From assembly GCA_965207065.1 (NCBI GenBank), contig OZ242260.1:3194514-3258513 (forward strand): DNA of 64,000 nt, given 5' to 3'. The notes beneath the pieces are model-generated. The model was not told the DNA's origin and searched no databases. It saw only the letters and a list, made by a program, of their open reading frames with translations. The number at the start of each line of letters is the position of its first letter. Position 1 is the first letter of the stretch. Of this stretch, positions 5,066-6,787 are shown one piece after another. The position numbers were made by a program, and so were the translations under genes. This DNA is from a bacterium. Its GTDB lineage: Bacteria; UBA8248.

Positions 5066-6787
5066 TTACTTGGTGGCGACGAAGCCGCCCGTAAATTTCG
5101 AGGCCCTGTCGCTCCCGTTGATCTCGAACACCGCGCCGACCGTGTCGACGATGTCCGTGTTGGCGTCGTTGTCGTTGTCCTGCTTGCGGAACTGTCCCTG
5201 GATCTTGCGCGTGGTGGTGGTTTCCGAAAAGCTGCCGCCCGAGACCGTCAGTCCGGTCCATGACTGGTTCGTGAAGGTGACCGGCCCGAAACCATCATCA
5301 TTTGAGTGATCTGATCCTTGGGTAAGCGTCGTGGCTTTGAGGTTGGTGAGCGACACGGCCGCCGTTACCGCGCCCCCACTGAGCGTGGCGGTCACGCTCG
5401 CGTCGCCGCCGATCAACTCTCCCCGAACCGCGATGTCGTTCACGTCGTCCGCGGCCGCGATGACCTTGCCTGTGAACGTGGCCGTCACGTCCGGCTGGGC
5501 CTGGGTTCCCTGGACTTGCAGGTATGCGTCGGCGCTGAAGAACTCGGTATAGGGCTGGCCATTCTCTACAGCAAATTCCCACAGGTCGAGTTTTCCTCCT
5601 TTGGCAGCGGTTCCGCCCACGTAATTGGAGGTGCCGGGACCCAGCTTGTCGATTATCAATATTACTCTTGTCTTGCTGCTGTCAGTCCCCGAAGGGTAGG
5701 CATAGCCGTACCTTTTGAAATACACGTTCTGGGTGTTAGCCCAAGCAAGCACGGCAATTCTGGCGACAACGACCTCTCGAACCTGGAAATTCGGCGCCGT
5801 GTTGGGAGTGTCGCCGAGTTGGCCCATATCGTTCGACCACAAGCCGAAGCCGTTCATGTTGACCACGCTGCCCCACGTGTATCCCCCAAAGCCTGGTGGT
5901 ACGCTGATCGAAATCGACTTGGTGGATGGCAGAGGGGGCAAGTCGGGGTTCGCCCAGCCCCGCCGGCCCAGCCCCCAGCTCGTCGAGATGATGTTCGCAC
6001 TGGTGGAACCGGACAGCTTCCCGCCCGCCTTGGTGCAGATCGCGCCGGCCGCCGCGCAGTCCGCCGTCGCCGGCAGGCTTATCGCGAGGGGATTGAGCGA
6101 GGACGGGCGCACCCGCACCGTCACGCTGCCGTTCTCGCCCCGCACCGTGCGCTTCACGTCCACCACCCGGCCGCCCGTCACCTGGAGCGCCTGCTTGAGC
6201 GCCCCCAGCTTCAGGCCGTCGAAATCCTCGCTGAACCGTATCTCGAAGCTCAGCAGCGTGCCGTCGTGCTTGTCCGGCAACCCGTGGAACGATGCCGTCA
6301 GCGGCGTCGGCGCGGAAACCGGCTGCGGCTCCGGCGCCGATACCGGCTCCGGCTCCGGCTCGGGAACAGGCGGCGTGACGGGCTCCGGCAGGGAGGCCGT
6401 GGCAGGCCCCGCAACCGTCAGCGAGCCGCCCCCGGCGATGCCGTCGGCCAGCGTGATCGTCAGGTCCCCGGACGAGGAGGGCCGCACCCTGACCGTCACG
6501 CCGCCGTTCTCGCCCCGCACCGTGCGCTTCACGTCCACCAACCGCCCGCCCGTCACCTGGAGCGCCCGCTTGAGCGCCCCCAGCCGCAGGCCGTCGAAGT
6601 CCTCGCTGAAGCGTATCTCGAAGACGAACAGCTTCTTGCCGTTATGCGCCTCCGGCGCCCCGTGGAACGACGCCGTCAGCGCGGCGGCCACCCCCGGCAG
6701 GGCCGCTACCGAGAGGGCGAGAACCAGAAATGCCGCCGCGCAGACGCCCGGCGGAGACAAAAAGGCATAGTTTTTTCTATTCTTCAT
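5066..6787 (-). CDS. Secreted TbpB-fold protein (putative Slam/T11SS cargo): tandem novel ~95-aa domains, Pro-rich linkers, C-terminal handle plus 8-strand barrel
   Basis: ATG at 6787 with GGAGG 7 nt upstream. SPase-I-type signal peptide with no lipobox. Two ~90% identical repeats (LTASFHG..EIRFSEDFDGL.LGALK.ALQVTGGR.VDVKRTVRGENG.VTVRVRP) separated by PEPEPEP-type linkers. C-terminus ...IQGQFRKQ...VGAVFEING...FTGGFVATK matches the TbpB/HphA-type barrel ending (GxFYG...GAFGAKR pattern). Confidence 0.55.
   Translation of the reverse strand: MKNRKNYAFLSPPGVCAAAFLVLALSVAALPGVAAALTASFHGAPEAHNGKKLFVFEIRFSEDFDGLRLGALKRALQVTGGRLVDVKRTVRGENGGVTVRVRPSSSGDLTITLADGIAGGGSLTVAGPATASLPEPVTPPVPEPEPEPVSAPEPQPVSAPTPLTASFHGLPDKHDGTLLSFEIRFSEDFDGLKLGALKQALQVTGGRVVDVKRTVRGENGSVTVRVRPSSLNPLAISLPATADCAAAGAICTKAGGKLSGSTSANIISTSWGLGRRGWANPDLPPLPSTKSISISVPPGFGGYTWGSVVNMNGFGLWSNDMGQLGDTPNTAPNFQVREVVVARIAVLAWANTQNVYFKRYGYAYPSGTDSSKTRVILIIDKLGPGTSNYVGGTAAKGGKLDLWEFAVENGQPYTEFFSADAYLQVQGTQAQPDVTATFTGKVIAAADDVNDIAVRGELIGGDASVTATLSGGAVTAAVSLTNLKATTLTQGSDHSNDDGFGPVTFTNQSWTGLTVSGGSFSETTTTRKIQGQFRKQDNDNDANTDIVDTVGAVFEINGSDRASKFTGGFVATK

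Follow-up and report, generated by a model that had tools for sequence, protein, structure and literature searches.

The type 11 secretion system (T11SS), described in Proteobacteria, joins an outer-membrane protein of the SlipAM/DUF560 type, Slam, to exported cargo proteins such as TbpB, HpuA, fHbp, hemophilin, NilC and Pls-like proteins (PMC12282271, PMC8406197). According to one survey (PMC12282271), predicted T11SS cargo consists of a barrel, a pedestal or handle and a separate N-terminal module, in some cases with proline-rich stretches, and in known cargo it is the barrel end and not the N-terminus that engages the secretin. We analyzed a candidate of this kind, hereafter the cargo gene (5066-6787, minus strand), in a 64,000-nt stretch of the genome of a bacterium of the UBA8248 lineage (assembly GCA_965207065.1, contig OZ242260.1, positions 3,194,514 to 3,258,513), which as a whole is called the window. 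The locus resembles the described systems in its SlipAM/DUF560 neighbor, its Sec signal peptide and, in the predicted structure, a C-terminal eight-stranded barrel placed after a handle or pedestal; its N-terminal module is likewise separate, and its linker is rich in Pro. It differs from them in that its barrel has diverged too far for Pfam TbpB_B_D, a lipobox is lacking, and homologs accompanied by Slam occur in metagenome-assembled genomes (MAGs) of Nitrospirales and Binatia, outside the Proteobacteria. A further difference is the N-terminal module itself, a tandem pair of immunoglobulin-like (Ig-like) domains, a term that does not occur in the same survey; in this protein the module is conserved whereas the handle is variable. 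We conclude, with a probability of about 0.78, that positions 5972-6679 encode an old and fixed pair of unnamed Ig-like domains, which forms the N-terminal module of a Sec-exported candidate Slam cargo.

The cargo gene encodes 573 amino acids and a stop codon, as called from the open reading frame (ORF) and a Shine-Dalgarno sequence. The start was placed at the ATG at 6787, preceded 7 nt upstream by the Shine-Dalgarno sequence GGGAGGAAG; the longer call made by the ORF finder reaches 6865. A protein in public data, P0158, located on a 4.48-Mb contig, is 100% identical to the cargo protein. The full-length protein was modeled by AlphaFold (AF2) with a 43-sequence family alignment as input, giving a mean predicted local distance difference test score (pLDDT) of 78.7. 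Along the protein, a signal peptide is followed by Ig-like copy 1, a linker, Ig-like copy 2, a handle and the C-terminal barrel, all encoded on the minus strand. The Sec signal peptide (aa 1-36, 6680-6787), read from the sequence, starts with a charged N-region (MKNRKN), continues as a hydrophobic core and ends in AAA immediately before LTAS; it looks like a signal peptidase I-type leader of a soluble protein, and residues 1-34 are disordered in the model (pLDDT <50). A canonical lipobox is absent from the leader, and the protein is therefore probably not lipidated.

Copy 1 (aa 37-128, 6404-6679) is a short form without a Cys-x6-Cys loop and covers positions 1-79 of a 111-position hidden Markov model (HMM) of the domain, which was built from retrieved proteins. 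Copy 2 (aa 163-272, 5972-6301) is the full form, covering HMM positions 1-110 and containing a DCxxxGAIC loop (Cys244, Cys251). In the full model, copy 1 is composed of seven strands and one helix, and copy 2 is beta-rich with one helix and has the same strand-helix order, both at a pLDDT of ~90. The two are joined by a Pro/Glu-rich linker (aa 129-162, 6302-6403) containing a 24-nt sub-repeat, which Tandem Repeats Finder (TRF) reported as period 24 at 6301-6375; linker residues 131-150 are disordered (pLDDT <50). The beta-rich handle or pedestal (aa 273-415, 5543-5971) was delimited by the secondary structure of the model (~287-415). It is followed at the C-terminus by the predicted beta-barrel of eight strands (aa 416-573, 5069-5542, ending in GGFVATK), with eight long strands in residues 436-572 at a pLDDT of 80-98.

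A preliminary description of this DNA had claimed a tandem duplication at the nucleotide level, and the duplication was recovered on re-alignment. By blastn, 6098-6311 matched 6473-6688 at 187 of 217 positions (86%, E = 3e-71), and the repeat unit had no further occurrence within the 64-kb window. Repeat finding resolved the match into one block of 160 nt (6098-6257 vs. 6473-6632, 90% identity, spacing 375) and a second of 53 nt (6251-6303 vs. 6629-6681, 79%, spacing 378), the difference in spacing indicating a one-codon indel. The values given earlier, ~90% identity and a 375-bp period, thus apply to the best 160 nt, while the full match is 86% identical with a period of 375 or 378; the DNA coordinates given for the copies (6114-6330 and 6489-6705) were ~16-24 nt too high. 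The core motif had been quoted correctly, with residue numbers that agree with the ATG at 6787, and in place of several Pro/Glu-rich linkers we found the single one at aa 129-162. Compared codon by codon, the copies were 87.7% identical over a 204-nt core and 83% identical over 231 nt. The nonsynonymous divergence (dN) between them was 0.10-0.16 and the synonymous divergence (dS) 0.22-0.27 (0.10 and 0.22, respectively, in the 204-nt core), and the protein copies shared 80% identity over 72 aligned columns.

The preliminary description had taken the duplication to be very recent and had suggested that the copy number may vary between strains. Such a variable-number repeat would agree with the 90% identity and exact 375-nt period of the best 160 nt and with a copy-to-copy dS of only 0.22-0.27. 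The homologs of the cargo protein contradict both parts of this proposal. All of the ~40 full-length homologs, which are 36-79% identical to the cargo protein and come from genomes labeled Alphaproteobacteria, Gammaproteobacteria, Nitrospirales and Binatia, contain exactly two units, and two copies are likewise present in a 566-aa allele found on two Joint Genome Institute (JGI) metagenome contigs. In each of these homologs copy 1 is loop-less (HMM positions 1 to ~80) and copy 2 carries the Cys-x6-Cys hairpin (HMM positions 1-110), so that the presence or absence of the loop distinguishes the copies identically throughout the family. What does vary is the length of the linker, which changes the copy-to-copy period from 99 to 142 aa.

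The units also group by their position in the protein and not by genome. In a neighbor-joining tree of 80 units, 38 of the 40 copy-2 units formed a clade containing no copy 1, and 77 of the 80 units had a nearest neighbor of their own repeat type. At the DNA level, among the window and the loci L002 and L003, copy 1 was 93-97% identical to copy 1 and copy 2 was 95-97% identical to copy 2, compared with 85-88% between copy 1 and copy 2 in each of the three. The two-copy layout shared by all homologs, together with the grouping by position, indicates that the duplication predates the radiation of the family, and we regard a very recent origin as extremely improbable. Before it spread among its present carriers, the family already had both a copy 1 lacking the loop and a copy 2 whose loop is probably clamped by a disulfide.

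An old duplication might also have been kept similar by ongoing gene conversion between the copies, that is, by concerted evolution, which would account for the modest dS between them. Exchange between genes does occur: copy 1 of the cargo protein is 100% identical to copy 1 of P0163, a paralog that lies on the same 4.48-Mb contig as P0158 and is only 70% identical to the cargo protein overall, which indicates some recombination between paralogs with exchange of the 5' module. In the distant subfamily of homologs, moreover, the identities of copy 1 to copy 1 and to copy 2 of the window are similar. Conversion within the gene, however, does not readily explain why the divergence between the copies is equal in three genomes, why the type-specific differences are common to the orthologs, or why only 1 of the 80 units has its nearest neighbor in the same protein. 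These comparisons gave no sign that conversion between the two copies is going on; we consider concerted evolution quite unlikely, and an old pair that has since remained fixed is preferred.

Modeled alone (AF2), copy 2 formed a seven-stranded sandwich with one short helix at a pLDDT of 92.3 and a predicted template modeling score of 0.84. The best fold matches in the PDB were the bacterial Ig-like domains of the mycobacterial L,D-transpeptidase LdtMt2 (probability 1.00, E = 4e-3, template modeling score, TM, ~0.5), followed by Ig-like domains of the chitinase ChiW, a filamin domain and CopC; with the full cargo model, Foldseek also matched the tandem S-layer domains of SbsC and Sap. Each copy is thus an Ig-like beta-sandwich of ~90-110 aa, as predicted with confidence by the models. 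By sequence, Pfam and NCBIfam gave no consistent match for the cargo protein, 43 family members or 36 isolated units, and even with the threshold relaxed to E <= 5, no family was hit by more than two of the isolated units; PDB sequences searched with a profile of the domain gave no match either. These searches bear out the preliminary description, which had been unable to assign the unit to a known family. The unit shares with described bacterial Ig-like domains (LdtMt2 BIg, SbsC/Sap S-layer, Pfam Big) a beta-sandwich of ~100 aa and an occurrence in extracellular tandem arrays. It differs from the Pfam Big families in having no significant sequence match to any of them, in its single short helix and in a signature of its own, LTA.F...P..H.G...F.F.L.FSE...V.GG.V...R....N..W.v.V.P.

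Near-invariant features of the domain are His, Arg and Ser residues and the Cys pair. The Cys-x(4-8)-Cys hairpin precedes the last strand in 541 of 568 full-length units, and a minority of units are shorter and loop-less. This loop-less variant ends in ...LPAGSVST.SGR.L...V.ATV.GP, which we take to resemble the C-terminal strands of some Big-type domains. Copy 1 was also considered as a truncated domain and this was rejected, as it has the full set of strands and lacks only the Cys hairpin, like the minority of units elsewhere. A further possibility is that the domain is a CopC-type metal-binding module built around the conserved His of the FHGxPxxHDG motif. CopC (6tpb) is among the fold matches with a TM of 0.45-0.52, one His is nearly invariant over the 36 diverse units, and many T11SS cargo proteins bind metals or haem. 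Against this, the CopC match is weak (E = 0.05) and comes after generic Ig-like domains in the ranking, the diverse units do not conserve the motif's first His, and no sequence match to any metal-binding family was found. A metal-binding role of the CopC type is thus quite improbable.

No other part of the cargo protein is as conserved as the Ig-like pair. In the close subfamily, the mean identity to the cargo protein was 0.90 for copy 1 and 0.89 for copy 2, compared with 0.54 for the handle and 0.71 for the barrel; the corresponding values in the distant subfamily were 0.67, 0.67, 0.24 and 0.38. The two copies are still alike because the domain evolves slowly. The handle region contains a hypervariable stretch (aa ~310-420, 5528-5860, minus strand), which showed 41-66% protein identity to the orthologs, with a dN of 0.24-0.55 and a dS of 0.14-0.80. 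Against L002 alone, this stretch was 61-78% identical at the DNA level, with a dN of 0.24-0.55 and an uneven, mostly far higher dS of 0.14-0.58, whereas DNA identity was 95-98% and dS 0.03-0.09 upstream of the gene, in the signal peptide and the two copies, and throughout the Slam gene (dS 0.04-0.06 in the repeats and 0.03-0.09 in Slam). This pattern implies a conserved frame around a hypervariable handle cassette, which may reflect diversifying selection, recombination or both. In close relatives, the common ancestor of the whole 5' half of the locus would also be more recent than that of the handle region. The suggestion in the preliminary description of a variable surface or secreted effector fits the exported candidate with its variable handle and upstream repeat, but not the Ig-like repeats, in which the variability had been sought and which vary least.

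The contrast between the pair and the handle also bears on whether the pair is a passive stalk or spacer, which holds a functional handle off the cell and has no binding role of its own. Many surface proteins have stalks made of tandem Ig-like domains and Pro-rich linkers, and the best fold matches of the domain include the non-catalytic Ig-like domains of LdtMt2 and of S-layer proteins. Proline-rich N-terminal regions of cargo are also noted in PMC12282271. Stalk domains, however, usually tolerate change, and here the pair retains an identity of 0.67 where the handle has fallen to 0.24, with near-invariant His, Arg and Ser residues and a conserved Cys pair. The engagement of the secretin by the barrel rather than the N-terminus in known cargo (PMC12282271) likewise speaks against a mere spacer. 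We consider a stalk a reasonable alternative, although not a probable one. Three features argue instead for a specific partner that is independent of the type of cell envelope: the pair is conserved, its His, Arg, Ser and Cys positions hardly vary, and it is reused in monoderm phyla. A conserved module amid fast-varying parts is the pattern expected of a module that recognizes something constant, for example a host structure.

In the gene order, a gene for a Slam, or T11SS outer-membrane protein, lies immediately downstream of the cargo gene (3391-4935, minus strand). Its product has N-terminal TPR repeats and a DUF560 barrel (PF04575 SlipAM, 7.6e-13), and the L002 gene call suggests that translation probably starts at the ATG at 4860. 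The same adjacency of cargo and Slam genes was found at six other loci (L001/L018, L002, L003, L004, L008 and L014). The predicted barrel of the cargo protein also points to this system. With the full model, Foldseek matched the barrel of the Neisseria meningitidis vaccine antigen 2lfu (probability 1.00, TMt 0.52, E = 7.4e-3), and hhalign aligned the cargo barrel profile with a nearby lipoprotein at 95.6% probability. The latter, encoded at 9382-10320 on the plus strand, is a second candidate Slam-type cargo of 312 aa with a clear lipobox (LSGC), a weak TbpB_B_D match and a weak match to the NCBIfam family 'Slam-dependent surface lipoprotein' (slam_lipo). We therefore regard the cargo protein as a Sec-exported candidate cargo of the adjacent Slam, with secretion and surface exposure as predictions.

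Slam homologs 59-72% identical to that of the window adjoin cargo homologs at L003, L004 and L008, in MAGs labeled Nitrospira, Nitrospirales and Binatia. The presence of such pairs outside the Proteobacteria, in which type 11 secretion was described, suggests horizontal transfer, and cargo-Slam pairs in these MAGs would extend type 11 secretion beyond that phylum. Two related loci were found in a disrupted state. In L001, a Paracoccaceae MAG, the orthologous cargo gene (10001-10537 and 15493-16821) is interrupted by IS66-family elements, inserted at the same position (after ...VTVR) in both Ig-like copies, and a group II intron-type reverse transcriptase gene lies between the pieces of the cargo gene. 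In L013, a Rhodospirillales MAG, 6001-6863 encodes a partial cargo (aa 36-240, with both Ig-like copies) and, directly behind it, the final 100 aa of Slam, which seems to be what a deletion has left of a cargo-Slam locus.

Upstream of the cargo gene, TRF identified a perfect octanucleotide array, (ACCCACAG)16 on the gene strand (7034-7161, minus strand, score 256, 100% match), which is the only perfect array within the 64-kb window. The array, which can also be written (CTGTGGGT)16, lies 247-374 nt upstream of the cargo start codon. The same locus carries 16 copies of the octamer in the window, 8 in L002 and 2 in two JGI contigs (L068 and L069), with flanks that are ~95% identical, and in L003 the upstream tract is (CGAC)25. 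Beyond the array, a consensus scan revealed an AT-rich island (7300-7400, minus strand) with a sigma-70-like promoter match, TTGATG-16-TATATT (7384-7357), in a region that is conserved in L002. If this promoter-like match is used, the octamer array would lie in a long 5' leader. A 91-aa ORF running through the array (7016-7291) was judged to be probably non-coding, given its TTG start and purely repetitive product. The array is probably a simple sequence repeat (SSR) that modulates expression, and any action of this non-coding tract would be at the level of transcription or of the leader.

A different arrangement was found on the 2.53-Mb Nitrospirales chromosome OZ241905.1, which carries eight cargo paralogs (L004-L007 and L009-L012), each with a tract at ~5660-5800 of its locus. 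In all eight, a conserved AAGGAGG-ATG is followed ~25 nt on by (CCTG)n, where n is 20, 11, 24, 20, 5, 4, 13 and 12. The ORF that starts at this Shine-Dalgarno-associated ATG is full length in four paralogs (n = 20, 11, 20 and 5, for which n mod 3 = 2) and, in the remaining paralogs (n = 24, 13, 12 and a degenerate n = 4), ends in TAATAGTGA immediately behind the tract. The downstream ORFs are intact in all eight paralogs (625-662 aa). The tract looks like the design of a translational phase-variation switch, although initiation at an internal ATG, where the signal peptide begins, could circumvent it.

Contingency loci based on SSRs are known from host-adapted bacteria, with examples in Neisseria opa (CTCTT) and nadA (TAAA), Haemophilus hgp (CCAA) and Moraxella uspA2 (AGAT). 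The present loci share with these the perfect 5' tracts at genes for predicted surface proteins and the copy numbers that differ between alleles or paralogs, and the Nitrospirales tract likewise sets the frame between a strong Shine-Dalgarno-ATG and the gene body. In the window, by contrast, the repeats are octamers located 247 nt upstream, outside the coding frame. A further difference is that the carriers are uncultured environmental or symbiotic bacteria rather than pathogens, and their tracts are known from sequence alone. Overall, the length polymorphism of the upstream tandem repeats between alleles and the frame-setting tracts of the Nitrospirales paralogs point to phase variation.

The Ig-like domain is also widespread outside the cargo family. 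An exhaustive HMMER search with the whole cargo protein, performed against 1.84 billion representative proteins, yielded 2,760 representative proteins at E <= 0.001 and 251 at E <= 1e-30. Most matches cover the repeat region, and giant proteins, up to 5,291 aa long and matched in as many as 18 stretches, are numerous among the targets; by the domain HMM, the retrieved proteins contain 1-25 copies each. The domain co-occurs with Calx-beta, fn3, SWM_repeat and Big_12 in proteins annotated as 'hypothetical' or by their partner domains. In many phyla, giant surface proteins with several kinds of domain are built in part from it, and the 2,760 representative proteins at E <= 0.001 would allow a new family to be defined.

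A scan of one genome per species gave 65 loci, every one of them in a MAG. Their labels include Nitrospirales, Rhodospirillales, Paracoccaceae, Thalassobaculaceae, Candidatus Poriferihabitaceae, Spirochaetia, Vicinamibacterales, Bryobacterales, Latescibacterota, Binatia, Acidimicrobiia-type bacteria and many Dehalococcoidia, a list that we take to be typical of sponge microbiomes. Bins obtained from the sponge Aplysina aerophoba (PMC5649159) include three of the scan contigs. Judged from the MAG names and these three contigs, the carriers of the cargo family appear to be sponge-associated. A search of the literature on this domain in sponge symbionts and on phase variation in sponge symbionts returned nothing specific.

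Several points weigh against this interpretation of the locus. Secretion, surface exposure and binding are predictions rather than experimental results. The barrel call rests on the predicted structure, the one Foldseek match (E = 7.4e-3) and the one profile-profile match; Pfam TbpB_B_D (PF01298) was not matched by the barrel in any of the 43 family members, and in a PDB profile search with the barrel the match to HpuA was not significant (E = 2.4). Most known Slam substrates have a lipobox; the cargo protein has none, and for this reason it may be released and not displayed. The identity of copy 1 with that of P0163 could blur the dating of the duplication. Finally, the sponge association was drawn from MAG names and three contigs and not from a habitat-controlled comparison.

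With these points in mind, the following mechanism can be proposed. The cargo protein would be exported by Sec and would then pass the outer membrane by way of Slam, through its C-terminal barrel. The Ig-like pair might bind or dock to a conserved external partner, for example host matrix or a glycan, which is the weakest step of the proposal. The hypervariable handle could provide antigenic variation under selection, and the upstream SSR could turn expression on and off. A wider scenario is a T11SS cargo family horizontally shared by unrelated sponge-associated bacteria, including Nitrospirales, in which a conserved Ig-like module is shown to the host while the handle and the slippage-prone repeats vary and switch the protein. 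We put this forward tentatively, as a possibility that is somewhat doubtful at present. If it is true, these genes are contingency loci in sponge symbionts, and the unnamed Ig-like domain, which also occurs in giant surface proteins across many phyla associated with sponges, is a common module for host recognition or attachment. For the open question of mutual recognition between sponges and symbionts, the present work offers a family of candidate surface proteins in which a repeat may serve as an on/off switch. The Ig-like pair by itself is ordinary, being a set of tandem domains from a long-ago duplication; its wider setting, with a widespread unnamed domain, a cargo family common to several phyla of likely sponge-associated bacteria, a handle that is hypervariable and repeats that are prone to slippage, is a new version of known kinds of system.

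The genomic setting of the locus was also inspected. After the Slam gene, the window continues (111-3380) with an HTH_17 regulator gene and a TraK-like gene, in DNA of 70-71% G+C compared with 55-65% further along the window, and at the orthologous L002 locus the gene order continues with TraL, TraE, TraK and TrbI. With the HTH_17 gene and F-type transfer genes beyond it, the cargo-Slam pair appears to be located at the edge of a conjugative element; a tRNA gene marking the element boundary was not found in the window. Short GC-rich palindromes with the core GGACAGGC...GCCTGTCC occur in intergenic DNA at 4939-4968, 7471-7500 and 12078-12132 of the window and at 5327-5364 of L002. They resemble repetitive extragenic palindromic (REP) elements and lie on either side of a segment made up of the cargo gene and its upstream region. 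The DNA that separates the cargo locus from tsaD and dus, which are housekeeping genes, holds a gene for a RES-domain toxin (11374-12009, plus strand, Pfam 8.5e-14) and a small ORF (7743-8174, plus strand) that by eye resembles a VRR-NUC-type nuclease.

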